Source of the DNA: Eubacteriales bacterium OttesenSCG-928-K08
Lineage (GTDB): Bacteria > Bacillota > Clostridia > Christensenellales > CAG-138
Reading direction: 5' to 3'
NCBI GenBank assembly: GCA_030266105.1
Contig: JAJDHH010000005.1
Span: 961 to 64,960, forward strand
Length of the DNA: 64,000 nt
Shown: positions 4,950-51,835 of the stretch, piece by piece
How the letters are laid out: every line of letters begins with the position of its first letter
Numbering within the stretch: the first letter of the stretch is position 1
Notes under the pieces: generated by a model
Databases searched by the model: none
Seen by the model: the letters and a program-made list of their open reading frames with translations, nothing else
Told to the model about the DNA's origin: nothing
Translations under genes and position numbers: made by a program

Positions 4950-6362
4950 CTACGTCGCGCCATCCGCCTCGTTGTAGACAAACGCCTCAAAACCATCGGG
5001 CGGCATGGGCTGTGCGCAGACCGACGCATACACCCCCATCAGGTGCTGCACAACAGAGGGACTGACTCTATAGAACGCCTCTGATGCGTTTCCACTGTAT
5101 GCATAGGCCGCGGCCAAATGGCTGTATGCGTAGGCCAGCAGCGAATCGGGGTCGTCGAACAAATTGTGCTTGACGGAATCGTAGCCGGGGCCGCCATAGA
5201 GGTAGTACGCACACTTAATCAGCGCATCGTCCACACCCGGCTGAAGATAGCGGCTGACAGGGTATGTGCCCGTTGGGGCGCTCGGCACGGACGGTTGCAG
5301 GCAGAACGCCGTGTTGCCGTTCGCGGTAAAATAGTGGGTGTAGTATCCGTAATATATCTGGTCGTCGCTGCGTGTGTGGGCCACCTGGCCGCCGGAATTG
5401 CGGGTGCGCAGCATCGCCTGGGTATAGGCCACGACCGTTAGGTCGCCACCCAGTGGTGAGGTGGATACATGCAGAGTCCCGTCCGAATAGCTGTAAGCGT
5501 CTGCGGGAAGCTCAATGCCGTTTTGTGACACGACCAGGGAGTCCGCAGAAGCAAGCGGTATGCTGATGCTGGCTACGTTTGACGGCAGGCGCAACTCGCT
5601 GGTGGATGTGGTAAACCGGCCGTTTTCAAAAGCGCAGACCGTTGCCTTTACAGGCAGTTCCACAGCCTCTGACGCAGGGCAATACCACTCGACCGTAACC
5701 GAATGCCCCATGTAGTCCTGCGGCAGTGAAACCATGCCGGTCGCTGCATCGTAAAATGCCAGCGCGGTGATGTCCTCACTGTCGTTCAGCAGCACACGAA
5801 AGCGCATGGCATCCGTACTGACCGGCACGATGCCGGGGAACTTGTTTGCCGAAATGGTGATGTTTTTGCCATCCGCCAGTGCCAGGGCGTAGAACGAATG
5901 GGTGGATGCCAGCGTATAGGCTGCATATTCCACAATCACCTGTTCAGGGCTGTCGGCGTAATAGTGGTAATCCACCCGCACCAAAGGCTTATCCACCACT
6001 TTCACCAGTTCCGGCTTCACCGAAGTAATGGGAGCGGGGTGCGTAGGTGTAGGCTCAAAGACGGGCGGCACGCTCTCCGCTGGTTCCTCCTCGGTAGGCG
6101 GTGTGCTTTCCACTGGCTCTTCCGATGCAGGCGGCGGTGTGTTTTCCGCAGGTTCGCCGAGATCAGGCTCAATCGGCCCGCTGTCGTCCGGCACGGAACT
6201 ACCGTCCGGTGGTACCGGAGATGTTTCATCGGGAAATGACTCAGTTTGATTGATGATGCCTGTATCCGTTGTGTCCTCTGCCAGCGCGGTCACAGGCAGA
6301 ATGGACAGGCACATCATCAAAACAAGCATGATCCCAAGAATACGCTTGAATCGCTTTCTCAT
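4950..6362 (-). CDS. adhesin head: signal peptide, Pro-rich linker, putative thioester-type adhesive domain
   Basis: ATG at 6362 follows AAGGAGG. Signal peptide is MRKRFKRILGIMLVLMMCLSILPVTALA. A PE-rich linker follows. The C-terminal domain has NGNTAFCLQPSVPSAPTG and YYLYGGPGYD. It ends at TAG 4950-4952, in the same frame as the stalk ORF. Confidence 0.65.
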   Translation of the reverse strand: MRKRFKRILGIMLVLMMCLSILPVTALAEDTTDTGIINQTESFPDETSPVPPDGSSVPDDSGPIEPDLGEPAENTPPPASEEPVESTPPTEEEPAESVPPVFEPTPTHPAPITSVKPELVKVVDKPLVRVDYHYYADSPEQVIVEYAAYTLASTHSFYALALADGKNITISANKFPGIVPVSTDAMRFRVLLNDSEDITALAFYDAATGMVSLPQDYMGHSVTVEWYCPASEAVELPVKATVCAFENGRFTTSTSELRLPSNVASISIPLASADSLVVSQNGIELPADAYSYSDGTLHVSTSPLGGDLTVVAYTQAMLRTRNSGGQVAHTRSDDQIYYGYYTHYFTANGNTAFCLQPSVPSAPTGTYPVSRYLQPGVDDALIKCAYYLYGGPGYDSVKHNLFDDPDSLLAYAYSHLAAAYAYSGNASEAFYRVSPSVVQHLMGVYASVCAQPMPPDGFEAFVYNEADGAT

Positions 6363-6384
6363 GTGGTCCTCCTTAAAAAATGGC

Positions 6385-6422
6385 AGTAAAAAGCCCCGCA
6401 TATCGCTTTGATATACGGGGCT
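6385..6422 (-). terminator. intrinsic terminator after the Pro-rich membrane protein gene
   Basis: Minus strand reads agccccgtatatc-aaag-gatatgcggggct followed by TTTTT. The two arms have one position that does not pair. Confidence 0.55.
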
Positions 6423-6460
6423 GTGGGTTATGATGCGCAAAGGCATATTTGAAAACAGGG

Positions 6461-7021
6461 TCACTCCACGCGGTAGCTGAAATCCTCTCCGTTCAGGAGA
6501 TGCCCATCGCCATGCGCTGGCACATTTCCTGTGATATCCGCACCGCAGGTGTTGCAGATCGTCCGGGTTTGCGGTGGTGGTGGATCGGGAAGCACCGACT
6601 CGGGTTCCGGTTCGGGTGCTGGCGGTTGTGCAGGCGGTGGCGTGGGTTCAGGTGCAGGTGTGGGTGGCGGCGCTTGCTCTGGCTGGGTTATGGGCGCGGG
6701 CGTTGATGGAGCCGCGGGTGGATTACCGCCGCCCGTGTTGCCTTGCGGCGTAGCGGTGGCCTGTGAACCGCCATCCTGTCCATCCTGCTTAGAACTGTCC
6801 GTCGAGTCCGGGTGTATCGTTGATGCGGGAGAAGGCGATATGATCGTCGGGGCCATGCTTTCAGATGGTGTTGAAGATATGGCTGCGCTCTGTTCGGGCA
6901 TGGGCTCCGATGGTGGGGCTTCCTCCTGCTTCTGTGCACCGCAGGACCTTGCCAGTAAAGCGATGACCAGGCCCAGGGTAATCAAAATCGCTACAGACGC
7001 CACCGTCTTCTTTTTTTGCAT
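6461..7021 (-). CDS. membrane-anchored proline-rich protein with small C-terminal CxxC..HxxxH module
   Basis: ATG at 7021 follows GGGAGGA. N-terminus is MQKKKTVASVAILITLGLVIALLA (signal anchor). A long P/T/S/A-rich region follows, then ICNTCGADITGNVPAHGDGH at the C-terminus. Confidence 0.5.
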   Translation of the reverse strand: MQKKKTVASVAILITLGLVIALLARSCGAQKQEEAPPSEPMPEQSAAISSTPSESMAPTIISPSPASTIHPDSTDSSKQDGQDGGSQATATPQGNTGGGNPPAAPSTPAPITQPEQAPPPTPAPEPTPPPAQPPAPEPEPESVLPDPPPPQTRTICNTCGADITGNVPAHGDGHLLNGEDFSYRVE

Positions 7022-12845: not shown

Positions 12846-12867
12846 GTGGGCATCCTTTCTGTGCATA

Positions 12868-12897
12868 ACAAAACCGCCCCGAAAGGCGGTTTTGTTT
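12868..12897 (-). terminator. intrinsic terminator after the BRO gene, just before the tape measure gene
   Basis: Minus strand reads aaaaccgcc-tttcgg-ggcggtttt followed by gtt. Confidence 0.6.
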
Positions 12898-12904
12898 TAA
12901 TGCT

Positions 12905-13702
12905 CTATGCAATCTTATATTTTTTTCGCATATTCTGCGGCCAATTGTCCGTATTGGTTAGAATTTCTTTCAAACGACCATATCCGGCTGCGTTATACCG
13001 AAACGTGTCAACCTGCCCATCACTGTGCTTCTTCTTATCAAGCACAACCTGTCCATACTTCTCAATCTTCACCCCGAAAGCGTTCGCGGTTCTCCCAACC
13101 CAGTTTTCCGTAAAATACAGGTTATGAATACCTAAATTCGCACCGATATCCTCACCAAGCCGCTTTGCCACATCTCCTGTCGTCATGAGCGGCTCAGTGA
13201 GTGTAGGGCGGAAAGGAAGCGTCTTTCCCGTGATGAACTCATGAGTATTAAGTAGGATCAGCTCGCGCGCTTCTTCAGACAGCGCCTTGTGGTTAGCAAT
13301 CTGCAGGAGCAGCCTGCCCTCTCGCACACGGCTGTTGCGTTCCTGCACCTCCATGCGTTTCACGGAAAGGTCGGTAGGCTGCGGGACGGAATATTGACCT
13401 GTTTTGCGAATAGCTGGGATTACATCATGAGTGATCCATCGTTTGAACGCCTTAGCCTCCGGCTTGCGGCTACCGAGCACGAGAGCGTAAAGGCCGGGTT
13501 CGTTGACGATATTCGTTTCTCCCTGACGCCCTAAGTTGAACTTAGCCCGTTCATCTTCTTCCAACCCAGTTACTGCCATGGTTACATTACTATGCTCCAG
13601 CGCCCTGCACACATCAGCCGCGACAAACCACGGTTCGCCATTTTTCTCAATCACGCGAACTTCGCCAAACTGCGAATTGTTAAATACTTGCAATTTATTC
13701 AT
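12905..13702 (-). CDS. BRO-N domain phage antirepressor
   Basis: N-terminus MNKLQVFNNSQFGEVRVIEKNGEPWFVAADVCRALEHSN...GLYALVLGSRKPEAKAFKRWITHDVIPAIRKTG is a textbook BRO-N domain. Confidence 0.8.
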   Translation of the reverse strand: MNKLQVFNNSQFGEVRVIEKNGEPWFVAADVCRALEHSNVTMAVTGLEEDERAKFNLGRQGETNIVNEPGLYALVLGSRKPEAKAFKRWITHDVIPAIRKTGQYSVPQPTDLSVKRMEVQERNSRVREGRLLLQIANHKALSEEARELILLNTHEFITGKTLPFRPTLTEPLMTTGDVAKRLGEDIGANLGIHNLYFTENWVGRTANAFGVKIEKYGQVVLDKKKHSDGQVDTFRYNAAGYGRLKEILTNTDNWPQNMRKKYKIA

Positions 13703-13941
13703 GCCGCTGCCTCCTTGCCCTTAGCCCGTTCCGCATTGTTAATCTCGATCCTCACTTTACCAACGGCGTTCATCGCCTCTGTCAGATAGTTTATAGCCGT
13801 GCTGATTAAGGTTTCTTCCTTAAATCCATGATTCTTCACATTTTCCAGATTTTCCAAGTCCGCTATTGTCTCCAGAAGATTTCTGGCCTGGAACAACGCA
13901 GTTTCGCTCTTTATTAGTATGGTTCCATGTTCTGATTGCAT
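13699..13941 (-). CDS. hypothetical 80-aa protein, translationally coupled (ATGA) to the BRO gene
   Basis: ATG at 13941 follows GGAGGT. Its stop overlaps the BRO start codon. Confidence 0.4.
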   Translation of the reverse strand: MQSEHGTILIKSETALFQARNLLETIADLENLENVKNHGFKEETLISTAINYLTEAMNAVGKVRIEINNAERAKGKEAAA

Positions 13942-14059
13942 AAAAAATACCTCCATAAAATAATCTTGTTTGAGGTATCTCTGATGTGGTATAATAATTT
14001 CACAGGCAGAGATGCCTCCGAGTAAGAGATATTAGGTGTGGCCGTCAAACTACAACCTT

Positions 14060-14365
14060 CTATCTCTTTTCTTCTGTTGATGTCCCATCGGGATCTTCGT
14101 CGTCTACTGGCGTAGCACCTAAAATTCGTAATGCGGCGACCGCGTCCTCCAATTCATATTGCAATGTTTGAATTTGTTCTTGAGTTTTCATCATTTCTTG
14201 ACGCATATCCCTTAATCCAGATCCTAGCCCCTCCGCATTACTGTTTTCCAGTAGCCGTACAATAAACTGGTTTTTGCTTATTTTCTCTTTTTCAGCCCCC
14301 CTTTCCAACATTTCGTGTTGCTCTGGTGTTAATCTAAGTGTGAATGTTCTTATCTTTTCCTCGAT
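14060..14365 (-). CDS. ribbon-helix-helix (CopG/Arc/MetJ-like) DNA-binding protein, probable non-AUG start
   Basis: The frame is open from the TAA just before AGGAGG. It reads RRWRTIEEKIRTFTLRLTPEQHEMLERGAEKEKISKNQFIVRLLE, an RHH beta-strand plus two helices. The first ATG (14311) would delete the strand. ATC at 14365 lies 9 nt after AGGAGG. Confidence 0.55.
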   Translation of the reverse strand: MEEKIRTFTLRLTPEQHEMLERGAEKEKISKNQFIVRLLENSNAEGLGSGLRDMRQEMMKTQEQIQTLQYELEDAVAALRILGATPVDDEDPDGTSTEEKR

Positions 14366-14408
14366 TGTTCGCCACCTCCTTTATGACTTCATTTTTGACG
14401 CTATGTCT

Positions 14409-14437
14409 ATAATAAATGGCTTCGTCTACGAAGTCAA
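14409..14437 (-). promoter_or_regulatory. sigma-70-type promoter TTGACT-N17-TATTAT with embedded palindrome cttcgtAGacgaag
   Basis: Read on the minus strand. The palindrome at 14420-14433 sits in the spacer and is a likely autoregulatory operator for the RHH protein. Confidence 0.5.
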
Positions 14438-14862
14438 GTGCTTTTTTTCATAAATATTTGCTCATACTGCGCTCGCGTAATTAATATTTCCAGTGGCTTA
14501 CTGCTGTCGAAGCCGCCTATATAACCGCGCTTCTCCATAATATTTACCAATTGTGCCAATCGCGCGTAACCAACACGCAGCCCAATCTGCAATATAGAAA
14601 ATGACACTTGGCCGCATTCCATCACTATGCGCATCGCATCACCTAACAGATCGTCTTCCATTTCCCCGCTATCGACGCTCGTCTCTACCCGTGGTTCCAA
14701 TTCAGGCAGGACATTATCGTCGGGAAAGTCCATTTTTTTGCGCCGTCGCATCTCAAGCCGCTCCAAATAAGCGAGGCGCTTTTCTAATCCGAAAACCCGC
14801 ATTTCAAGCTCTTCTACCAGCTCACGCAACTCTTTCTTTGTGCTATCCATTTGCTTCTCCAA
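14434..14862 (-). CDS. coiled-coil protein with stand-alone FtsK-gamma (winged-helix) domain
   Basis: C-terminus DDLLGDAMRIVMECGQVSFSILQIGLRVGYARLAQLVNIMEKRGYIGG matches the FtsK gamma pattern D.L...A...V.....S.S.LQ..L..GY.RA..L...ME..G. No motor domain is present. Confidence 0.6.
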   Translation of the reverse strand: MEKQMDSTKKELRELVEELEMRVFGLEKRLAYLERLEMRRRKKMDFPDDNVLPELEPRVETSVDSGEMEDDLLGDAMRIVMECGQVSFSILQIGLRVGYARLAQLVNIMEKRGYIGGFDSSKPLEILITRAQYEQIFMKKST

Positions 14863-15886
14863 AATACTCGCGCAGCACCTTAGCTCGTTTTTCTAGTTTA
14901 GGTGCCAATTCCTCTGGCTTTGGGTCCGTCCAAGTCAGCCCCCTCTTAGAAGTGGTGCATTTATTGCATGATTCATAATCTGCGTTCATTATTCTGCCGC
15001 AAGAACACTCCCACTTTTTGCCCGGCACCTTCCACTCAATAACTTCAGGAAATCCAGTTTTCATCAATTCAGCTAAACGTATTAACGTAGCTGCATCTTC
15101 TCTGCTATATTTAGCGGGCAAAACTTCGACAAGATGCAACCCTAGACGTTTCTTCTGCAAATCCGTATTCTTAAGTGCATTTTCTACCGCCGTAAGATTT
15201 CCAAGCCTATAGTTTTTCATCACACCAACTAGCTGTGTAAATGCCTGCTCTCCAACACTGGTCTGCGTAATCCTGTCAATAAACTTTGATGAAAGTTCAT
15301 TTTTGTCAAAAAGTGAAAAATATTGGTCTAGTTTGTCTTTGTTTTCAGCGCTCATAACCGTGAATGAACCGGTAACACCAGCCGACAATTCATCAATCAC
15401 GTTGTTTATGGCTTCTACCAACTCGTACTCGTATATTTTCTCCATGCTCATCAGAGCCTTGACGCTACCATTTTGTATCTGCTCTAAATAGTCGTTACGC
15501 GCAATCAAGTAATGAACGGCCTCTTCTGATATTTCGCCCGATGTGCTGTCCTCGGAAGACAATCCATTTATATACACGGCAGTCCCCGTCATTACTGCCA
15601 TAAACATTTGTTTGTTCTGACCTGATATTTCATCAAAGTCAACCCGAAGGCCGATTATCGCATTAGCCTTCATCTTTTTTGCCTTGCGTGTGAGTTTAGT
15701 TAATACTTCATTTTTCAGTGTGTCTAATTCATCTTGATATGCAGTTGAAAAACCAGAGAACCAATCGCCCCAACTCGCAGAAAGATCTGCCCAGAACCCC
15801 GTCCTTGCCACTGCGTTTGCAGTAACAACACCAATATATTCGGTTATCTCGTAATTTCCTATGCCGTTGGTAGTTGTTATTAACAT
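14843..15886 (-). CDS. YbjQ/DUF74-domain protein fused to a helical region and C-terminal zinc ribbon
   Basis: ATG at 15886 follows GGGAGG. MLITTTNGIGNYEITEYIGVVTANAV...ANAIIGLRVDFDEI...MAVMTGTAVYI matches the YbjQ family pattern. C-terminus has WECSCGRIMNADYESCNKC. The last 20 nt overlap the next gene. Confidence 0.6.
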   Translation of the reverse strand: MLITTTNGIGNYEITEYIGVVTANAVARTGFWADLSASWGDWFSGFSTAYQDELDTLKNEVLTKLTRKAKKMKANAIIGLRVDFDEISGQNKQMFMAVMTGTAVYINGLSSEDSTSGEISEEAVHYLIARNDYLEQIQNGSVKALMSMEKIYEYELVEAINNVIDELSAGVTGSFTVMSAENKDKLDQYFSLFDKNELSSKFIDRITQTSVGEQAFTQLVGVMKNYRLGNLTAVENALKNTDLQKKRLGLHLVEVLPAKYSREDAATLIRLAELMKTGFPEVIEWKVPGKKWECSCGRIMNADYESCNKCTTSKRGLTWTDPKPEELAPKLEKRAKVLREYFGEANG

Positions 15887-15972
15887 TCCGTACCCCTCCC
15901 GCTCATTTTCCCATAGTATACCAAAATGCACAGGACGTTACTACCTACTCATTTCCATTTCCAGTAATAGTT

Positions 15973-16571
15973 CTACACCACGTTCCCTACTGCGTTTCCA
16001 TCCTCGTCCACCAGCTCCCCCGGGTCTTTTCCTGTTGCTTGCCGATATCGCGCATCAATTATGGGCTCAAGCTCTTCCCAGTAATATTCGTTCAACTGTT
16101 GTTTGGAAATGCCTGAGGCTGAAAAATAAGCGAGCAGTTCTATTCGCTGGGCTTGTGCTGTTTTATGGCTTGCCCGATCATCTGGAGCATTGGCAAGCCT
16201 TTGGTAAAAAAATCTATAATTCCATTAACCTCAATAACCGCTACCAGCAGGTCAACTATGCCACCAATACCGATATTTTCCGAGGTTAAAATATTGTCTT
16301 CGTCCTGTTTCGTAAAGCGCGCGATAATAGATACTACCAAACGCACAAACGCCGTGCTGCTTAAAAGCAGCTGTTGTATAACGTCCTTTTGTCCGTCGCT
16401 TTTTAGCATGACCGCAATTTCCAACACGCCCATTCCAGGAAACACTGCATCGGCAGCGGCAGCTATTGCATCCTCACAAGCAAGGAATGCGTCCTCAAAA
16501 TCCAAGTAACCGAGACGCTTTACCTCAATACCGCATATCGTTACGCAGTTCGGTTTCTGTTTCGATCTCAT
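15973..16571 (-). CDS. tail assembly chaperone GT-type fusion product (via -1 frameshift at 16206-16212)
   Basis: After GAT TTT TTT the -1 frame stays open for 79 codons (YQRLANAPDDRASHKTAQAQRIELLAYFSASGISKQQLNEYYWEELEPIIDARYRQATGKDPGELVDEDGNAVGNVV*). It ends at TAG 15973-15975. Confidence 0.6.
16140..16571 (-). CDS. tail assembly chaperone (G-type)
   Basis: Sits immediately after the major tail protein. ATG at 16571 follows GGAGGG. 143 aa, acidic. Confidence 0.65.
   Translation of the reverse strand: MRSKQKPNCVTICGIEVKRLGYLDFEDAFLACEDAIAAAADAVFPGMGVLEIAVMLKSDGQKDVIQQLLLSSTAFVRLVVSIIARFTKQDEDNILTSENIGIGGIVDLLVAVIEVNGIIDFFTKGLPMLQMIGQAIKQHKPSE
16206..16212 (-). promoter_or_regulatory. slippery heptamer T_TTT_TTT for programmed -1 ribosomal frameshift
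   Basis: Zero-frame codons are GAT TTT TTT ACC near the 3' end of the chaperone ORF. Confidence 0.6.
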
Positions 16572-16607
16572 AATCCCTCCATAAGAAAAAGGGTGGTTTC
16601 CCACCCC

Positions 16608-20538: not shown

Positions 20539-21974
20539 TCATCATCACCGCTCCCACCGAACGAGGTATTCATTTCATCAAGCGCAGTAACCTCAAAAGC
20601 TTCAGCATTTTCATCCCCGATGCGGTTAATTTCCTTCTGTGCCTCGCTTTCTGTTTTGCCGTCAACCTCCATGATAGCTGTCTGAATACTCATAGTTTGT
20701 TTGGCACCCGTACGCAGGCTTACGATCTGCGCCGTCTCCATTGGATCATCAGGCAGGCCATCAAACCACTTGATTGATATATCTGCGGAATGAATTCCAT
20801 CTAGCCGCGCGGCCGTTTGGATTACCTGCTTTAGTACAGGGTCGAACGTCATACGAACGCGAGCAATTTTTGCAAGAGCGGTAGATAACAGCGTACGCAA
20901 AGCTGTGCCTGTTGGCATCTGACCCATTTTTTCAGCAACATCGGAAATTAGCGCGCCCATCTCTGAAATTGTGCGTAGTTGTCCCAAAAGCTTCTCGATT
21001 TGCTCAAATGCCGCCGACATTTGAGCATCCCAAACAATATATCCAACATTGCCGCTTTCGTCCTCTCCTAGTCCGCGATTGATAAAGAAATTACCGGTGC
21101 GAATTTCAAATTCGCCCGTACCCATACCATTCTCCCCGCGCCTCTCCTCGAGCGCACTAGCGGGGCCTTGCATACTGGGCTGCGCATGTTTATCTAAAAC
21201 TTTTGATATCTGGGCAAAGCGCACCTCGATCTCTTGTATTAGGCTGTTGATATTGTGATAGTCATCAATGCCATGCACGCGGTCAGAGGTAACAATGTTT
21301 GATACTTGCCAAAAGTCAATTCCATCGACTCCTGTACTAACCACCTCGGGTGTAGCTAGCCGATCACCAATCACCCCGGACACTTTTCCCTCTAGTCGAT
21401 GGCGACGTCGCTCATTTTGCCCGGGAGAATGTATTTCAATGAGCAGCTCGCGCTCTGTGGGTTTCTCTGAATTCGGCGCAACAACTGCAGCGATCACCTC
21501 ATGTAACCTGTGCTTGATATTTAGCGGATCCACTACAGGATACCAACAATCTGTGCGCCCAACATAAGCTACCGCTCCTCCTTGAGGACGTGACACGCCA
21601 AGCGTGCCATCCCCATATCTGGATACGTCCAATGCCGCTTGATAGCACTGTGAAAGCAGTTGTGATCTCTGAGTAAAACCGTCAATAAAGACTTGCATTT
21701 TCTTATCTTTGCTGGTGATTGTAGGCCATTCAGAAAAAAGCAGATCGGCAGTTTTCTTGCTAACTAGCTGTTGATAGTTGAGTAAAATTTCATAACTTAC
21801 AACATCATCAAACGCGCCAACTACCTGTTGTACGCGCCGAAAAGCATCACTCTGCCCGCCATAGTGCTCGCCTTCAAAAAGTTTCCGGTTGATGTCATAA
21901 AGCTGAATGCGCTCAACCTCCGACTTAGGGGGCCAAGGCTGACCAGGCTCAAGAAATATTAAGTCATACAACAT
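20535..21974 (-). CDS. phage portal protein
   Basis: 479 aa, directly upstream of MuF. N-terminus MLYDLIFLEPGQPWPPKSEVERIQLYDINRKLFEGEH is portal-like. Confidence 0.8.
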   Translation of the reverse strand: MLYDLIFLEPGQPWPPKSEVERIQLYDINRKLFEGEHYGGQSDAFRRVQQVVGAFDDVVSYEILLNYQQLVSKKTADLLFSEWPTITSKDKKMQVFIDGFTQRSQLLSQCYQAALDVSRYGDGTLGVSRPQGGAVAYVGRTDCWYPVVDPLNIKHRLHEVIAAVVAPNSEKPTERELLIEIHSPGQNERRRHRLEGKVSGVIGDRLATPEVVSTGVDGIDFWQVSNIVTSDRVHGIDDYHNINSLIQEIEVRFAQISKVLDKHAQPSMQGPASALEERRGENGMGTGEFEIRTGNFFINRGLGEDESGNVGYIVWDAQMSAAFEQIEKLLGQLRTISEMGALISDVAEKMGQMPTGTALRTLLSTALAKIARVRMTFDPVLKQVIQTAARLDGIHSADISIKWFDGLPDDPMETAQIVSLRTGAKQTMSIQTAIMEVDGKTESEAQKEINRIGDENAEAFEVTALDEMNTSFGGSGDDE

Positions 21975-22930
21975 TTGTTAGCCGTGTCGGTATCTGCGTC
22001 CAGTTTCGCAACAGCCTCGCTATGCCGCGCCTTGATTACGGCAAGCTTGTCATTTAGCCGATCATCCAGGCCGGCAAGCTTATCCTCCGCCGCAACGATC
22101 TCCGCCTTGAGTCGTTCAATCGTTCGGCTCAAACCATCCCGCTCATTTGCGATGGCCTTTTCTTCTGCTGCAATCGCCATATCCCGATCGGCATCCAGCC
22201 CGCGCATTTTGTTATCGTATGATGCGCGAAACGCCTTAGCGCGCTCGATCCGGTTATTAGTCTCTCTCGCCTGTTCGAGCCGCCTTATTGCCTCGGACAG
22301 ATCAAAATTCTCCCACTTTTCCGCTTGGTATCCTTGCGGTATATCCCGTGCGATCTCGGCCACAAGCGATTGATTGTTTTTGATATCGCGGTTAATATTC
22401 TGGCGGCTCTGGTAATACACGCCTTTTTCGGATTGGATATCTGCCAGAACCTCAAGGATGTGCTTCGAGTAGTCTACTCCCTGCGGAATTTCCCCAAATT
22501 GAGCGCGTATCCAGTTCGTATCCCAATCAAATTCGATCAGGTTCAGGATGACGCGATTTTTCTCCTGCCGCGACATCTGCGTAAATTCCACCGGATTCAG
22601 TTGTAACGGAGTAAATATCTGGTTCAAAAACTCGGCCGGGCGCGTTTGCGTTAGCGAGCCGTCGCGCACCTTAACCGCATCCGCTTTGTTCAAGCGTGTT
22701 TTGCGATTGATATGCAGGCCCGTATCGGTTTCAATTAGGATTTCCCCCTCTTCCGCGCCCTGCCGGATGATAAAATCCCGGTCGCTCCGATTGGTAAGGG
22801 CATACCGTATCGCATCCAGCACTGATGTTTTACCGGCCCCCTTAGGCCCAGTAAGCTCAACCGATCTCCCGGTGAGATCACATTCTGATATGCCAAACAA
22901 GTTGCGTATTTTTATTTGAGTTGTACGCAT
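21959..22930 (-). CDS. SMC/SbcC/RecF-type ATPase, N-terminal half only (Walker A plus coiled coil)
   Basis: ATG at 22930 follows GAAAGGAAAAG. Reads IRNLFGISECDLTGRSVELTGPKGAGKTSVLDAIRYAL and then a long coiled coil. There is no signature or Walker B half. The 3' end overlaps the portal start by 16 nt. Confidence 0.65.
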   Translation of the reverse strand: MRTTQIKIRNLFGISECDLTGRSVELTGPKGAGKTSVLDAIRYALTNRSDRDFIIRQGAEEGEILIETDTGLHINRKTRLNKADAVKVRDGSLTQTRPAEFLNQIFTPLQLNPVEFTQMSRQEKNRVILNLIEFDWDTNWIRAQFGEIPQGVDYSKHILEVLADIQSEKGVYYQSRQNINRDIKNNQSLVAEIARDIPQGYQAEKWENFDLSEAIRRLEQARETNNRIERAKAFRASYDNKMRGLDADRDMAIAAEEKAIANERDGLSRTIERLKAEIVAAEDKLAGLDDRLNDKLAVIKARHSEAVAKLDADTDTANKCCMT

Positions 22931-23031
22931 ATGCTTTTCCTTTCTGATCACTTGCGCTTTTTCAAGCAATGTGATATACTATTTGTGTATTTTTATGACG
23001 AACGCCTTACTGGTTGCTTCCGGTGGGCGTT

Positions 23032-26928: not shown

Positions 26929-28023
26929 ATGCTATGTAAAAAATGCAAAAAAGAGATCCCGCCAGATAGCGCGTTTTGTAACTGGTGCGGAGCGGCTCAA
27001 GCCCCGCGCGAAAAATCCGTCAAAAAGCGCGGAAATGGCCAGGGCTCTGTTTACAAGCTTGCTAACGGGCGCTGGATGGCCGAATGCCGCATAATGCACG
27101 GCGGGCAGGATAAACGCTCAAGGCGCACGTTTACGACCCGCACGGCAGCGCTGGAGTGGCTAAAAACCGCAGACCCAACCGTTAAAAAGGAAGTTACGCT
27201 AAAGTCACTATATGAGGCATGGAGCACAAGCGCCATGCTTAAATTATCAGACTCAAAACAAACCGCGCACAAGATCGCCTATAACCGATTTTCTGATCTG
27301 CAATACGCGCCAATCAAAGATATAAAGATCGAAGACCTGCAAAGCATGGTAGATGATAACGGGACCTCGTATTACACTAAACGCGACATGAAGAGCCTGC
27401 TCTCACACCTTTACAAACGGGCAGTTGCACAGCAGGATGTGACAACAAATTTAGCCCTATATATCGAATTGCCGAAATTGGAAGAATCTGTTCCGGAGCC
27501 CTTTACCGAAGATGAGTTGAAGCTGCTATGGACTGATTATGGAAATGAAAATAAGTTCACCGGCTACATACTGCTTATGATCTATTCGGGCATGATGCCG
27601 GGCGAGCTCTTACAAGCTACAAAAGATATGATTGACTGGGAGACCCAAACCATCACCGGCTGCGGGCTTAAGACTAAAAAGCGCAAGTCTACGCCGATCG
27701 TAATTGCTGATTTTATGGTCCCTGTGCTCGCTGACCTCTTGAGCCTTGGATCAGGCGGGAAGCTCGTAGGCATGAGCAAGAATCAATTCTATGATGAGTA
27801 CCACTCCACAATGCAGCGCATAGGGTGTCGCGACCTACCTCCCTACTCATGCAGGCACACAACGGCTACCGCTATGGCGCTGGGAAACATCGCCCCTTCA
27901 GTTATACAAGAGGTTATGCGCCACTCAAAAATTACCACAACACAACGTTACATCCACATCGATCAGCGCCCAATGTTGGATGCTGTAAATACGCTTAAAA
28001 CTCAAATTAACAGTGGGCAATAG
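26929..28023 (+). CDS. int: tyrosine site-specific integrase with N-terminal zinc ribbon
   Basis: N-terminus is CKKCKKEIPPDSAFCNWCG. The C-terminal catalytic box is SCRHTTATAMALGNIAPSVIQEVMRHSKITTTQRYIH. Confidence 0.9.
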   Translation: MLCKKCKKEIPPDSAFCNWCGAAQAPREKSVKKRGNGQGSVYKLANGRWMAECRIMHGGQDKRSRRTFTTRTAALEWLKTADPTVKKEVTLKSLYEAWSTSAMLKLSDSKQTAHKIAYNRFSDLQYAPIKDIKIEDLQSMVDDNGTSYYTKRDMKSLLSHLYKRAVAQQDVTTNLALYIELPKLEESVPEPFTEDELKLLWTDYGNENKFTGYILLMIYSGMMPGELLQATKDMIDWETQTITGCGLKTKKRKSTPIVIADFMVPVLADLLSLGSGGKLVGMSKNQFYDEYHSTMQRIGCRDLPPYSCRHTTATAMALGNIAPSVIQEVMRHSKITTTQRYIHIDQRPMLDAVNTLKTQINSGQ

Positions 28024-28085
28024 AGTGGGCAATAGGACGAAATTATGCGATATTTAGCGATACTTTTGAAGCCGGTAAAGCGGCA

Positions 28086-28120
28086 ACAAAAAACCCGCTA
28101 AGCCTTACACTTAGCGGGTT
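28086..28120 (-). terminator. terminator of the tRNA-Ser pair
   Basis: Minus strand reads aacccgctaag-tgtaagg-cttagcgggtt followed by TTTTTT. Confidence 0.6.
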
Positions 28121-28213
28121 TGGCGGAGACGGAGAGATTCGAACTCTCGCACCAGTTATCCCAGCCTACTCCCTTAGCAGGGGAGCCCCTTATAGCCACT
28201 TGGGTACGTCTCC
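28121..28213 (-). tRNA. tRNA-Ser (anticodon GCU)
   Basis: Reverse complement is GGAGACG..CTCCC-CTGCTAA-GGGAG..long variable arm..GAGAGTTCGAATCTCTC-CGTCTCC-GCCA. Folded by hand. Confidence 0.9.
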
Positions 28214-28222
28214 ATTATAATT

Positions 28223-28310
<88 letters not shown>

Positions 28311-38044: not shown

Positions 38045-39709
38045 TTGGCATCAAAATTGAAGATTATTCCACTAGGCGGTGTCGGTGAGATCGGTAAAAA
38101 TATGACCGTGATCGAATATGGCAAGGACATCGTAGTTGTTGATTGCGGCTTGATTTTTCCGGATGAAGAAATGCTGGGCATTGATCTTGTCATCCCCGAC
38201 ATGTCCTACTTGGAAAAGAACATTCAAAAGCTAAGAGGCTTTTTAATTACCCATGGTCATGAGGATCATATCGGCGCACTTCCATTTGCGTTACGAAAAT
38301 TCCCCGTACCCGTGTATGGCACCAAACTAACTGTTGCGCTTATCAAACACAAGCTGGATGAGCATCACATCACCGATGCACAGCTTAATCAGGTTAGCCC
38401 GGGAGATACGATCAGACTGGGCTGCTTTAAAATTGAGTTTATTAAAACCTGCCATTCCATAGCAGGCGCTGTTGCCCTTGCCATCACCACCCCTATTGGA
38501 ACGGTTATACACACCGGCGATTTTAAGGTGGACTACACCCCCATTGACGGTGAGCCTATGGATATAAACCGTTTTGCTCATTATGGCTCAAAGGGTGTGC
38601 TTGCGCTGCTGTCGGATAGCACAAATGTAGAGCGCGCCGGGCACACGCTTTCCGAGCAGGAGATTGGCAAAACATTTGAGCATTATTTTGATAGTGCAAA
38701 AGGGCGTGTAATCGTTGCCTCTTTTGCATCCAACATTTATAGAATTCAGCAGGTTGCGGATGTAGCAATCGCGCATGGGCGGTTCATTTGCTTCCAGGGC
38801 CGCAGCATGCTCAACATTGTGGGCACCGCGATAGAGCTTGGCTACCTGAACATTCCTTCCGAAAAAATTGTGGAAATGGATAGGTTGCGCAGGCTAAAGG
38901 ACGAGCAGATTTGCGTAATCACAACGGGCAGCCAGGGCGAGCAGATGAGCGGCCTGTTCCGCATGGCAAACGCCTCGCACAAGCTGAATATCGAAAAGGG
39001 GGATATGGTTATAATATCCGCCTCAGCGATACCGGGCAATGAAAAAGGCGTTTCGCGCGTAATCAATCAGCTTTTTGAGCGCGGCGCAATGGTTGTGTAT
39101 GACCGAATGGCGGATGTGCATGTTTCAGGCCACGCCTGCTGCGAGGAGCTAAAGCTGATGCTCAATTTGACGAAACCCCGCTTTTTTATACCGGTGCATG
39201 GAGAATACAGGCATTTGTATATGCACGCGATGCTTGCCCAGGAAATGGGCGTGGAGCAGGAAAACACATTTGTGACCAATATCGGTGATGTTGTTGAGCT
39301 AACCTATAAGCAGGGGAAAATCACCGGGAATGTGCCTGCGGGCAGCTTAATGGTGGATGGGCTTGGAATAGGCGACATTGGTAATGTTGTGCTAAAAGAC
39401 CGAAAGCTTTTGTCGGAGGACGGGCTGGTTGCGGTTGTAATCGCCCTGCAAAAAAAGACCGGAAAGCTGCTTGCGGGCCCTGAAATAATATCCCGAGGTT
39501 TTGTTTATATGCGCGAATCGGAAGAGCTTATTAAAGATGCTCGCGAGGCCGTAAAGCCACTTGCGGAATCCTTTGCAACGAGCCCGCACTCTGAATGGGC
39601 GGGGATTAAAAACAGCATCCGCTCTGCATCAAGAGAGTTTTTTTATAACAAAACAAAGCGCAACCCTATGATTTTGCCCGTTATCGTCGAGGTGCCCGAT
39701 GAGCACTGA
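38045..39709 (+). CDS. rnj: ribonuclease J
   Basis: KIIPLGGVGEIGKNMTVIEY and the metallo-beta-lactamase motif THGHEDHIGALP. 554 aa. Confidence 0.9.
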   Translation: MASKLKIIPLGGVGEIGKNMTVIEYGKDIVVVDCGLIFPDEEMLGIDLVIPDMSYLEKNIQKLRGFLITHGHEDHIGALPFALRKFPVPVYGTKLTVALIKHKLDEHHITDAQLNQVSPGDTIRLGCFKIEFIKTCHSIAGAVALAITTPIGTVIHTGDFKVDYTPIDGEPMDINRFAHYGSKGVLALLSDSTNVERAGHTLSEQEIGKTFEHYFDSAKGRVIVASFASNIYRIQQVADVAIAHGRFICFQGRSMLNIVGTAIELGYLNIPSEKIVEMDRLRRLKDEQICVITTGSQGEQMSGLFRMANASHKLNIEKGDMVIISASAIPGNEKGVSRVINQLFERGAMVVYDRMADVHVSGHACCEELKLMLNLTKPRFFIPVHGEYRHLYMHAMLAQEMGVEQENTFVTNIGDVVELTYKQGKITGNVPAGSLMVDGLGIGDIGNVVLKDRKLLSEDGLVAVVIALQKKTGKLLAGPEIISRGFVYMRESEELIKDAREAVKPLAESFATSPHSEWAGIKNSIRSASREFFYNKTKRNPMILPVIVEVPDEH

Positions 39710-50182: not shown

Positions 50183-51835
50183 ATGGCTTATCAGGCGCTT
50201 TATCGAAAATACCGCCCGCAACGTTTTGAAGAAATTGTAGGGCAGGCTCATATTACAACCATACTCCAAAACCAGATTAAGCAGCAGCACGCGTCGCATG
50301 CCTATTTGTTTTGTGGCTCAAGAGGCACAGGCAAAACAAGCACCGCAAAAATCTTTGCGCGCGCATTAAATTGCCTTTCCCCTGAAGATGGCGAAGCCTG
50401 CGGCCGGTGCGATGCCTGCCTGGCTATGGATGAAAGCGCCAGCGTTGATATCGTTGAAATCGATGCGGCCTCCAACAATGGTGTGGATGATGTGCGCGCG
50501 CTTATCGAACAATCCCGCTTCACCCCACTCTCGCTCAAACACAAGGTCTATATAATCGACGAGGTTCACATGCTCACAGGCGCCGCATCCAATGCGCTGC
50601 TTAAAACGCTGGAGGAACCGCCCCGGCATGTGGTGTTTTTGCTTGCGACAACCGAGCCGCAAAAGCTGCTTGCAACAGTTATTTCACGCTGCCAGCGTTT
50701 TGATTTTCGTAGATTGGCCGTTGATGATATTGTTAAAACTGTTCAAAGCGTCGCCAGCCATGCCGGCGCACAGATTGATGAAGAAGGCCTGCTGGCCATT
50801 GCCCGTGCCGCCGATGGTGGCCTGCGCGACGCGCTCAGCCTGACAGACCAGTGCATTGCTTTTTGTGGAAATAATATTTCCGCGCAGGATGTATATAGCG
50901 TGCTGGGCGCAATGGACATGGACTTTATCTTTAACATCACCGATGCGCTAATTTCCTCCAACGCTGCAAGCGCCATTAAGCTTTTGGATGAGGTTGTGCA
51001 GGGCGGGCGCGATCTTGGCGTGCTGGTTTTGGATCTTTCACGGCATATTCATGCTTTGCTGCTCGCAAAAACATGTGGGGACTGTCGTGATCTTTTGGAC
51101 TGTACCCCAGAAACTATGCGCCGCTACATTAAGCAAGCCGAGCAAGCTTCAGAAGAGAGGCTGTTAAGAGCGCTCAATCAGCTTGCAAAAACACAAAACG
51201 ATATGAAATGGTTGGGTCAGCCGCGTGTTTTGCTCGACACAACACTGGTGCGCATATGCCGCGCTGAGGATGAAACCGACCTGATTGCATTAAAGGATCG
51301 TTTGGATATATTGGAGAAGAAGCTCGAAGGCGCTGTTTTTGCGCAGCCATCTTCTGCTCCTGAATCTATTTCTTACGATACCACACAACCCACCGATGAG
51401 GACTCCCCTCCTTGGGAGGAAACCACCGTGCCTCCAGTGGCTACGCCTGCAAAAAAACAAGCCCCTGCTGTCAGTGCGCCCGTTCCACAAAAGCATCCCG
51501 CTGAAAAAAAAGAAAATACCGGCATTGTCGATTATTGGGAGACTCTCAAAAAAGCGCTGCAAACTCGCAATCTTTCCCTATACGTGATTATGACATACGC
51601 GCAGAGTGCACAGCTTATTGATAACACATTGTTTGTGCGCTTTTCTCCTGCAAAAGAAAGCTCCGTCAATATGCTTAACAATCCCAAAAATCTTGCGATT
51701 TTAAAAGAAGAATTGCAAAAACTAAATCCGGAGCTTGGCATTTCCATCAGTGCGCAAAGTTCAGCAGAACAACCCCCTACACCTAAAGAGCTAAACGACC
51801 TGTTTGGCGACAAGCTAAGCATAGTTGAAGAATAG
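50183..51835 (+). CDS. dnaX: DNA polymerase III subunit gamma/tau
   Basis: YRPQRFEEIVGQ..GSRGTGKTSTAKIFARALNC. Confidence 0.93.
   Translation: MAYQALYRKYRPQRFEEIVGQAHITTILQNQIKQQHASHAYLFCGSRGTGKTSTAKIFARALNCLSPEDGEACGRCDACLAMDESASVDIVEIDAASNNGVDDVRALIEQSRFTPLSLKHKVYIIDEVHMLTGAASNALLKTLEEPPRHVVFLLATTEPQKLLATVISRCQRFDFRRLAVDDIVKTVQSVASHAGAQIDEEGLLAIARAADGGLRDALSLTDQCIAFCGNNISAQDVYSVLGAMDMDFIFNITDALISSNAASAIKLLDEVVQGGRDLGVLVLDLSRHIHALLLAKTCGDCRDLLDCTPETMRRYIKQAEQASEERLLRALNQLAKTQNDMKWLGQPRVLLDTTLVRICRAEDETDLIALKDRLDILEKKLEGAVFAQPSSAPESISYDTTQPTDEDSPPWEETTVPPVATPAKKQAPAVSAPVPQKHPAEKKENTGIVDYWETLKKALQTRNLSLYVIMTYAQSAQLIDNTLFVRFSPAKESSVNMLNNPKNLAILKEELQKLNPELGISISAQSSAEQPPTPKELNDLFGDKLSIVEE

Follow-up and report, generated by a model that had tools for sequence, protein, structure and literature searches.

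Two overlapping genes in the late region of a prophage

The window analyzed here is a stretch of 64,000 nucleotides (nt) from Eubacteriales bacterium OttesenSCG-928-K08 (assembly GCA_030266105.1, contig JAJDHH010000005.1, positions 961 to 64,960 of the forward strand), and all coordinates below are positions in the window. An earlier reading of this DNA, made without database searches and called here the sequence-only reading, singled out two adjacent genes as a candidate cassette in which a protein with a YbjQ (DUF74) domain is coupled to a stand-alone FtsK-gamma domain. The two genes, gene 1 and gene 2, lie within an accessory block (12867 to about 16000) between the tail chaperone gene (16140-16604) and the tape-measure gene (start at 12866) of a prophage. 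The features of the two genes are as follows.

15915-15923, minus strand: extended -10-like element TGGTATACT upstream of gene 1, a candidate promoter only, with a poor -35 region
15893-15900, minus strand: ribosome-binding site (RBS) of gene 1, GGGAGGGG, preceding ATG 15886 (read in the sequence)
14843-15886, minus strand: gene 1, 347 amino acids (aa), ATG 15886 to TAG 14843 (listing of open reading frames, ORFs)
15566-15886, minus strand: YbjQ/UPF0145 domain of gene 1, residues 1-107 (Pfam PF01906, Foldseek)
15056-15556, minus strand: predicted all-helical middle domain of gene 1, residues 111-277, about 10 helices, alpha-solenoid-like (AlphaFold2, AF2, pLDDT 92)
14939-15037, minus strand: zinc finger of gene 1, residues 284-316, small beta zinc ribbon WxCxCG...CxxC (family alignment, AF2)
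14864-14917, minus strand: conserved C-terminal amphipathic helix of gene 1, residues 324-341 (AF2; position conserved in the family alignment)
14434-14850, minus strand: gene 2, 138 aa, ATG 14850 to TGA 14434
14740-14841, minus strand: N-terminal heptad-repeat segment of gene 2, residues about 4-37 (heptad pattern, weak GCN4-type matches)
14476-14661, minus strand: FtsK-gamma-like winged helix of gene 2 (PF09397, 2ve8 match, alignments)

The ORF of gene 2, read mechanically, begins further upstream at TTG 14862, and the overlap with gene 1 had accordingly been given as 20 nt. Because a GGAG box is located 9 nt upstream of ATG 14850, and the public gene call for gene 2 (P0003) is likewise 138 aa, ATG 14850 is the likely start, which overlaps the gene 1 stop as ATGGATAG and reduces the overlap to 8 nt. 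The two genes have the same orientation and are coupled in translation. The pair had also been described as self-promoted, but the only candidate promoter upstream of gene 1 is the element TGGTATACT, and a consensus scan found no sigma-70-type site in this region and did not pick up TGGTATACT either.

Gene 1 combines a YbjQ domain with a helical domain and a zinc finger

Residues 1-105 of gene 1 match the Pfam family YbjQ_1 (PF01906) with an E-value of 8e-22 (78.2 bits, with a cut-off of 23). The AF2 model of gene 1, built on the family alignment described below, has a pLDDT of 89.7 (92.0 when the C-terminal part is modeled alone), and Foldseek matches the N-terminal domain of the model to three YbjQ crystal structures, 1y2i, 1vr4 and 3qkb, at E 6.5e-9 to 1e-5, with TM-scores normalized to the target of 0.77-0.91 (0.84 for 1y2i, at E 6.5e-9). 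The YbjQ domain proposed in the sequence-only reading is thus confirmed by both profile and structure comparison. The NCBIfam equivalogs for single-domain YbjQ proteins score gene 1 at only 30-73 bits, far under their cut-offs of 160-181.

The middle region of gene 1 had been described as helical with no recognized motif, and we also found no close known relative of this region. A Foldseek search of the model returned only weak matches to ARM/HEAT/TOG folds (best E 0.08), among them designed ARM repeat proteins with E of 0.08-1 and TM-scores of 0.25-0.39, and a Pfam scan found no match to HEAT-type models in the gene 1 protein itself. No Pfam model covers the C-terminal 230 aa, and the gene 1 protein alone gives no significant Pfam match for its zinc finger. 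The C-terminal zinc ribbon noted earlier is real, its Cys residues being invariant across the family. In PHROGs, gene 1 matches phrog_15412 (unknown function). We recognized no enzymatic or membrane effector domain in gene 1. Its layout is modeled as a YbjQ domain followed by a HEAT/ARM-like helical domain, a zinc finger of the RanBP2/NZF type and a C-terminal helix.

Gene 1 belongs to a widespread family of solitary genes

Searches with a word-index method, using gene 1, gene 2 or a profile of the gene 1 C-terminus, gave almost no matches and made gene 1 appear to be an orphan. When the C-terminal 240 aa of gene 1 served as the query, an exhaustive HMMER search yielded 59 cluster representatives, nearly all of them 340-372 aa long, with the match at their C-terminal end and a Pfam YbjQ domain on record for those that were looked up. 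In the family alignment, W292, C294, C296, C307, C310 and G316 (gene 1 numbering) are invariant, and the zinc-finger signature reads W-x-C-x-C-G-x2-N-x6-C-x2-C-x2-D-x2-G. The family profile matches the zinc fingers of Nup153, RanBP2 and ZNF265, with Nup153 the best (E 2.9e-4), and PF00641 (Zn_ribbon_RanBP) matches 2 of 29 family members. HEAT-type models (HEAT_2, HEAT_EZ and HEAT) match a few members only, HEAT_2 being found in 2 of the 29 (best E 3.8e-9). Gene 1 is, by homology and shared architecture, a phage-borne member of an existing family that is unnamed and uncharacterized.

A degenerate DNA pattern modeled on the zinc finger served to find members in species genomes. About 55 of the 120 genome stretches retrieved encode strong family members as judged by the family hidden Markov model (HMM), in hosts that include Bacteroidota and comprise Sphingobacterium, Mucilaginibacter, Flavipsychrobacter, Paenibacillus, Clostridium, Gemmatimonadota, Rubrivirga and others. 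The neighbors of the family genes vary from genome to genome: an all-against-all BLAST of the neighbors produced clusters within the same genus only, and the most frequent Pfam family among 139 proteins flanking gene 1 relatives occurs no more than 3 times. With no shared neighbors between genomes, the family consists of solitary genes. Most members sit in ordinary chromosomal neighborhoods, and some are near insertion sequences or defense-type genes (STALD, RadC, IstB). A type II toxin-antitoxin pair was ruled out as an explanation of gene 1 and gene 2, because the relatives of gene 1 are solitary with non-conserved neighbors.

The closest relative of gene 1 is P0006, which shares 35% identity over the full length and is encoded on a 3-kb phage-like contig (L130:1273-2950). 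Because its gene directly follows a homologue (31% identity) of the tail chaperone ORF in the window, P0006 occupies the same phage slot as gene 1. Terminator-like hairpins follow P0006, and neither an overlapping gene nor a gamma gene is found there. The junction between the chaperone gene and the tape-measure gene may be a recurrent cargo slot for the gene 1 family.

Two family members carry other N-termini in place of the YbjQ domain: that of P0045 is hydrophobic and membrane-like, and that of P0019 is a small, unrelated domain. The C-terminal module with its HEAT-like domain and zinc finger, rather than the YbjQ domain, may therefore define the family. A further relative, P0002 (256 aa), has a YbjQ domain 52% identical to that of gene 1, followed by a coiled coil, and is encoded on a 6.8-kb contig (L001:351-4511) near an AbiGi-family gene and helix-turn-helix (HTH) regulators.

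Gene 2 encodes an FtsK gamma domain without a motor

Gene 2 matches the Pfam family FtsK_gamma (PF09397) with an E-value of 6e-17 (61.5 bits, with a cut-off of 30.6), and the match spans positions 2-63 of the 63 profile positions. The closest solved structure is the gamma domain of P. aeruginosa FtsK (2ve8, E 1.6e-5). Gamma is the sole Pfam match; the alpha/beta RecA-like motor (PF01580) was not found in gene 2, and the NCBIfam model for FtsK scores it at 16.6 bits with a cut-off of 1566. The first 35 aa show a clean heptad pattern with weak matches to GCN4-type coiled coils (E 0.35-1), and this segment is probably a coiled coil. Thus, the gamma domain and the missing motor of the sequence-only reading are both supported, and so, with some reserve, is its N-terminal coiled coil. 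In PHROGs, gene 2 matches several gamma-containing phage families.

The gamma domain of gene 2 is 41-47% identical to the C-termini of four full-length FtsK proteins encoded on contigs from human faecal samples and to the FtsK fragment P0004. The similarity with the four FtsK proteins reaches into the tail after the wing, where gene 2 has ILITRAQYEQIFMKK and the four have LLITKEQWQELKMK. Because the identity extends through this post-wing tail, the gamma domain of gene 2 descends from the 3' end of a Bacillota-type ftsK gene.

The top 'phage' matches to gene 2 are bacterial ftsK C-termini on contigs mislabeled 'Bacteriophage sp.'. These contigs (MT835572, MT835804, MT835649 and MT837146, all human faecal) carry a full-length bacterial ftsK with neighbors of housekeeping size and appear to be bacterial, and they can mislead searches of phage databases for gamma domains.

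Two other identities of gene 2 were considered and rejected. A truncated ftsK pseudogene was discarded because no motor-like sequence lies upstream, where the space is taken by gene 1. A small terminase was discarded on account of the wrong domain order and genome position and the lack of a large terminase.

Gene 2 has lost the canonical contact residues of FtsK gamma

In FtsK (E. coli numbering), R1289 forms a salt bridge with E184 of XerD, and its mutation has the greatest effect on activation among the FtsK residues tested; the FtsK peptide that activates XerD comprises residues 1289-1297 (PMC5052618). The mutations R1300A, E1303A and E1306A together render FtsK KOPS-blind (PMC2680272). The XerS recombinase of L. 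lactis is not induced by isolated gamma (PMC2965235).

We aligned gene 2 with nine other gamma domains, six from FtsK proteins and three from phage proteins (the small terminase of Sam46, Skulduggery gp43 and Bowser gp53). R1289, which is Arg in all nine, is replaced by Ile in gene 2, and R1300, kept in eight of the nine (His in Sam46), is replaced by Gln. E1303 becomes Asn at a position that is acidic in 9 of 9, and the wing Arg, also present in every other gamma, becomes Leu (SKPR to SKPL). In the alignment these changes read as QR(R/K)L to QIGL, RAAR to RLAQ, and N in place of the acidic residue three positions on. The XerD-contacting stretch RQFRIGYNR corresponds to IGLRVGYAR in gene 2, and the recognition-helix positions R1300, E1303 and E1306 are Q, N and E, so that one of the three is kept. 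On sequence grounds, gene 2 is a motor-less derivative of FtsK gamma without the canonical contact residues.

These replacements bear on the idea, raised in the sequence-only reading, that gene 2 manipulates Xer recombination or reads the KOPS DNA motif. In its full form, gene 2 would be an FtsK-independent activator or decoy of host Xer recombination or of KOPS/SRS-guided loading of FtsK/SpoIIIE, comparable in its effect to XafT or to isolated FtsK gamma, with gene 1 as a cofactor. The fold and family of gene 2 are truly those of FtsK gamma, and, compared with the aligned Bacillota-type FtsK gammas, gene 2 retains its hydrophobic core and the 'E-x-G-Q-x-S' stretch. Furthermore, XerCD-dif can be activated by isolated gamma, or even by a peptide of 9 aa, RQFRIGYNR, when it is fused to XerC (PMC3130261, PMC5052618). 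However, gene 2 has Ile at the residue whose mutation cuts activation most, it has also lost the wing Arg and two of the three KOPS-blind residues, and Pfam finds FtsK_gamma alone in gene 2 and no other Xer-factor family. In addition, the prophage has its own tyrosine integrase, by which it integrates at a tRNA-Ser gene, and therefore does not need Xer for integration. Because R1289, R1300, E1303 and the wing Arg are all replaced, canonical Xer activation and KOPS reading by gene 2 are disfavored; gene 2 is unlikely to be an Xer activator, and we give the full form of the idea little credence.

A further reading involves no DNA binding. The gamma-like protein with its coiled coil could serve as a dedicated mimic of the host FtsK C-terminus: having given up DNA binding, it would still dock on a gamma partner (a tyrosine recombinase of host or phage, or else the FtsK/SpoIIIE motor) and recruit the gene 1 oligomer to it. 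If true, the prophage would control its own excision, the pumping of DNA at the septum or the resolution of chromosome dimers, which would represent a new kind of phage-host interface and provide the first functional handle on YbjQ-type proteins. We consider this reading very improbable.

The pair is seen once

The sequence-only reading had staked the cassette on its co-occurrence elsewhere. We searched about 65 loci that carry relatives of gene 1 for a gamma domain, with phmmer using gamma sequences and with an HMM built from seven gamma domains (the HMM recovered 4 of 4 control ftsK loci), and found no FtsK-gamma domain in any of them. No close relatives of gene 1 or gene 2 were found in IMG/VR, and scans of IMG/VR with the tail chaperone and the major tail protein of the window yielded no relatives. 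A metagenome scan with an alignment of P0001 and P0006 returned distant or YbjQ-only matches alone, and in a blastn search of the region against phage records, the antirepressor gene was the sole match. A literature search on YbjQ/DUF74 with phage found nothing functional and no described system that combines YbjQ with gamma, in agreement with the sequence-only reading. What stands of the proposed two-gene cassette, therefore, is translational coupling inside a prophage; a recurrent system is not supported, since the gene 1 family is solitary and the pair is absent from the loci of its relatives.

The host itself is poorly represented in sequence collections. In a set of about 15 billion proteins, its RNase J1 and DnaX (38045-39709 and 50183-51835) are each singletons at 90% identity. 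Sampling of the lineage is so sparse that a sister strain could still carry the pair. As far as sequence searches reach, the combination of gene 1 and gene 2 is unprecedented and seen once, a curiosity rather than a new system.

These results also bear on a defensive role, in which the pair would be a new anti-phage or superinfection-exclusion system, with the gamma-like winged helix sensing or binding incoming DNA and an oligomer of the YbjQ-HEAT-zinc finger protein acting as the effector. Such a role would suit an accessory slot beside an antirepressor module with a G+C content below that of its flanks. Some gene 1 relatives lie near STALD, RadC or IstB, and a YbjQ-only relative adjoins AbiGi. 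On the other hand, a scan with PADLOC-DB 2.0 matched neither protein to a known defense family, and across the gene 1 family PADLOC gave only sporadic single-member matches (two HEAT-type models and one E2). Gene 1 has no recognizable enzymatic or membrane effector domain, its family is solitary and mostly in ordinary chromosomal neighborhoods, and the pair never recurs. We therefore regard a dedicated defense system as unlikely.

The prophage and the adjacent Arc/Ant-like unit

The accessory block has a G+C content of 43%, compared with 48-49% in its flanks. Downstream of gene 2, it contains the following features.

14409-14437, minus strand: promoter-like site TTGACT-17-TATTAT for the downstream ribbon-helix-helix (RHH) gene, 10 of 12 matches (consensus scan)
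14420-14433: palindrome CTTCGTAGACGAAG in the spacer of the TTGACT-17-TATTAT site
14060-14365, minus strand: RHH protein of the Arc/CopG/HicB type with a coiled-coil tail (Pfam)
13699-13956, minus strand: 85-aa ORF with no family match (Pfam, PHROGs)
12905-13702, minus strand: antirepressor of the Bro-N/Ant type (Pfam Bro-N, E 2.6e-23; phrog_130, anti-repressor Ant, E 2e-50)
12867-12896, minus strand: perfect 12-bp inverted repeat and T-run, a terminator-like end to the accessory block, 1 nt before the tape-measure start codon at 12866 (repeat search)

The region 12867-14437 looks like an Arc/Ant unit, similar to immI of P22, within the late region. The extended ORF of the RHH gene matches the RHH part of HicB in Pfam (E 5.5e-8). 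Its RHH motif begins upstream of the only ATG of the gene at 14311 (window 14311-14381, minus strand), and no in-frame ATG, GTG or TTG follows the strong RBS AAGGAGGTG. The lack of a canonical start after AAGGAGGTG suggests that the gene starts at ATC (14365) or ATA (14353), or that the sequence contains an error.

In another reading, the two genes are functionally independent. Gene 2 might be a dimeric winged-helix regulator of the Arc/Ant-like promoter or of the moron (accessory) block, and gene 1 unrelated cargo that is co-transcribed with it. In favor of this reading, the stop codon of gene 2 falls inside the -35 hexamer of the TTGACT-17-TATTAT site, whose spacer holds a palindrome, a coiled coil joined to a winged helix is a common regulator layout, and other phages reuse gamma as a general DNA-binding module, as in the small terminase of the Bacillus phages Sam46 and Sam112. 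Moreover, a homologue of gene 1 occupies the same slot of another phage without gene 2. Nevertheless, a simpler account of the palindrome is that it serves as operator for the RHH protein, whose gene comes next, the basic residues of the recognition surface are lost in gene 2, and the overlap of start and stop suggests that gene 2 is co-produced with gene 1 in stoichiometric amounts. A repeat search around gene 1 and gene 2 revealed no repeated motif that could be a binding site candidate for the winged helix. That the two genes are independent in this way does not seem likely to us.

The prophage extends over about window positions 1 to 28100. It contains genes for an integrase, a Cro/C1-type HTH protein (possibly the repressor), portal, minor head, scaffold and connector proteins, and, for the tail, the major tail protein, chaperone, tape-measure protein, distal tail protein (Dit) and tail-associated lysin (Tal). 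Neither a major capsid ORF nor a large terminase ORF was found in the prophage, and for this reason it is probably defective.

A dead prophage could also account for gene 1 and gene 2 as decaying remnants with no current function, the odd gamma residues being the product of relaxed selection. This explanation draws on the missing major capsid and large terminase ORFs and on the fact that the substitutions in gene 2 strike exactly the residues that are otherwise conserved and functional. Yet neither ORF is interrupted, each has a good ribosome-binding site and the two overlap neatly by 8 nt, the model of gene 1 is confident and all zinc ligands invariant in the family are kept, and gene 2 preserves the hydrophobic core of gamma with a Pfam score twice the cut-off. 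Decay thus has only a small chance of being the right account.

Several other features of the prophage and its surroundings were observed. In the region 26929-28310, the tyrosine integrase carries an N-terminal double zinc ribbon (DZR, E 2e-4), and two tandem tRNA-Ser genes (anticodons GCT and TGA) adjoin it as the likely attachment site. An SbcC-like AAA ORF (21959-22969) abuts the portal gene. In the tail region, the ORF at 4950-6464 has a thioester domain (TED_2, E 1.7e-22), a domain typical of Gram-positive covalent adhesins, placed here in a tail or host-recognition module. The host chromosome is of the Bacillota type and carries RNase J1, dnaG, lepA and dnaX.

A proposed role for the pair

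We propose, with about even confidence, that gene 1 and gene 2 form a lineage-specific accessory ('moron') block in a probably defective siphovirus prophage, and that gene 2 is a repurposed adaptor or regulator. The block would have been inserted between the tail assembly chaperone gene and the tape-measure gene, beside the Arc/Ant-like module. Because the crystal structure of the relative 1vr4 was solved with five chains, the YbjQ domain of gene 1 is expected to oligomerize, and the solenoid and zinc finger of gene 1 may bind a protein or nucleic-acid ligand. Gene 2 would oligomerize through its coiled coil. Since the charged residues that read KOPS and activate XerD are lost, gene 2 is most likely repurposed, either as a DNA-binding adaptor or regulator that may have gained a new specificity through the Gln and Asn in its recognition helix, or as a protein-protein adaptor for the gene 1 oligomer. 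In this proposal the two proteins would interact, and the lysogen may benefit, for example through exclusion or through regulation of the adjacent Arc/Ant-like module.

Several points weigh against this proposal. The 8-nt overlap shows that the two genes are co-expressed, not that their proteins interact, and the pair is known from a single instance. The genes could be drifting, because the prophage has neither a major capsid gene nor a gene for a large terminase. Poor sampling may be part of the reason that the pair is absent elsewhere, as housekeeping proteins of the host are singletons too. Finally, the rules for the contact residues come from FtsK of E. coli and P. aeruginosa, and Firmicutes may rely on different contacts for Xer activation.

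Should the two genes act as a unit, they would give a YbjQ-type protein its first functional context and offer an example of phage repurposing of an FtsK gamma fold stripped of its canonical contacts. With one instance at hand, and with residue-level evidence against the most interesting hypothesis, the pair is a modest lead. More solid is the definition of an uncharacterized and phylogenetically wide protein family with a YbjQ domain, a HEAT-like solenoid and a RanBP2-type zinc finger, members of which are carried by two related phages between the tail chaperone gene and the tape-measure gene.

Comparison with known systems

The unit next to the pair, rather than the pair itself, resembles immI of P22, in which a small RHH repressor gene and the Ant antirepressor gene lie in the late region. 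The two share the RHH gene, a palindrome in the promoter, an antirepressor of the Ant/Bro-N type and the late-region position. Unlike immI, the unit in the window shows no Mnt-like divergent gene, has an extra 85-aa ORF, and contains an RHH gene without a canonical start codon.

XafT of the Vibrio TLC element is an Xer activation factor encoded by a mobile element. Its sole common point with gene 2 is conceptual, that of a mobile-element protein that could replace FtsK gamma. No sequence relation between XafT and gene 2 was detected (Pfam finds FtsK_gamma only), gene 2 is without the Arg that contacts XerD, and the prophage of gene 2 carries its own integrase.

As a member of the winged-helix family of FtsK/SpoIIIE gamma (PF09397; 2ve8/2ve9, 2j5p, 5dcf), gene 2 differs from FtsK/SpoIIIE in having an N-terminal coiled coil in place of the alpha/beta motor and in the replacement of four contact residues. 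Gamma proteins outside the FtsK layout are also found in phages, namely phrog_13700, 6576, 22882, 36563 and 6152, the small terminase of Sam46 and Sam112, Skulduggery gp43 and Bowser gp53. Like gene 2, these phage-encoded proteins reuse the gamma winged helix outside a full-length FtsK. They are, however, 254-400 aa long with other domains, and none is paired with a YbjQ protein, whereas gene 2 is a 138-aa protein of coiled coil and gamma. All three phage gammas in our alignment retain R1289, the wing Arg and an acidic residue at 1303, and R1300 is retained in two of them; gene 2 keeps none of these.

For gene 1, the family pattern W-x-C-x-C-G-x2-N-x6-C-x2-C resembles that of the RanBP2/NZF zinc fingers, W-x-C-x(2,4)-C-x3-N-x6-C-x2-C (PF00641; Nup153, RanBP2, ZNF265, TAB2), although the gene 1 family has one residue between the first two Cys where these fingers usually have 2-4, and occurs in bacteria and phage. 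Gene 1 also shares with YbjQ/UPF0145 proteins (PF01906) its residues 1-105, which score above the HMM cut-off and whose modeled fold superposes on the crystal structures. The canonical YbjQ protein is a single domain of about 105 aa with unknown function, whereas gene 1 encodes 347 aa in which the YbjQ domain is followed by the predicted solenoid, the zinc finger and a terminal helix.

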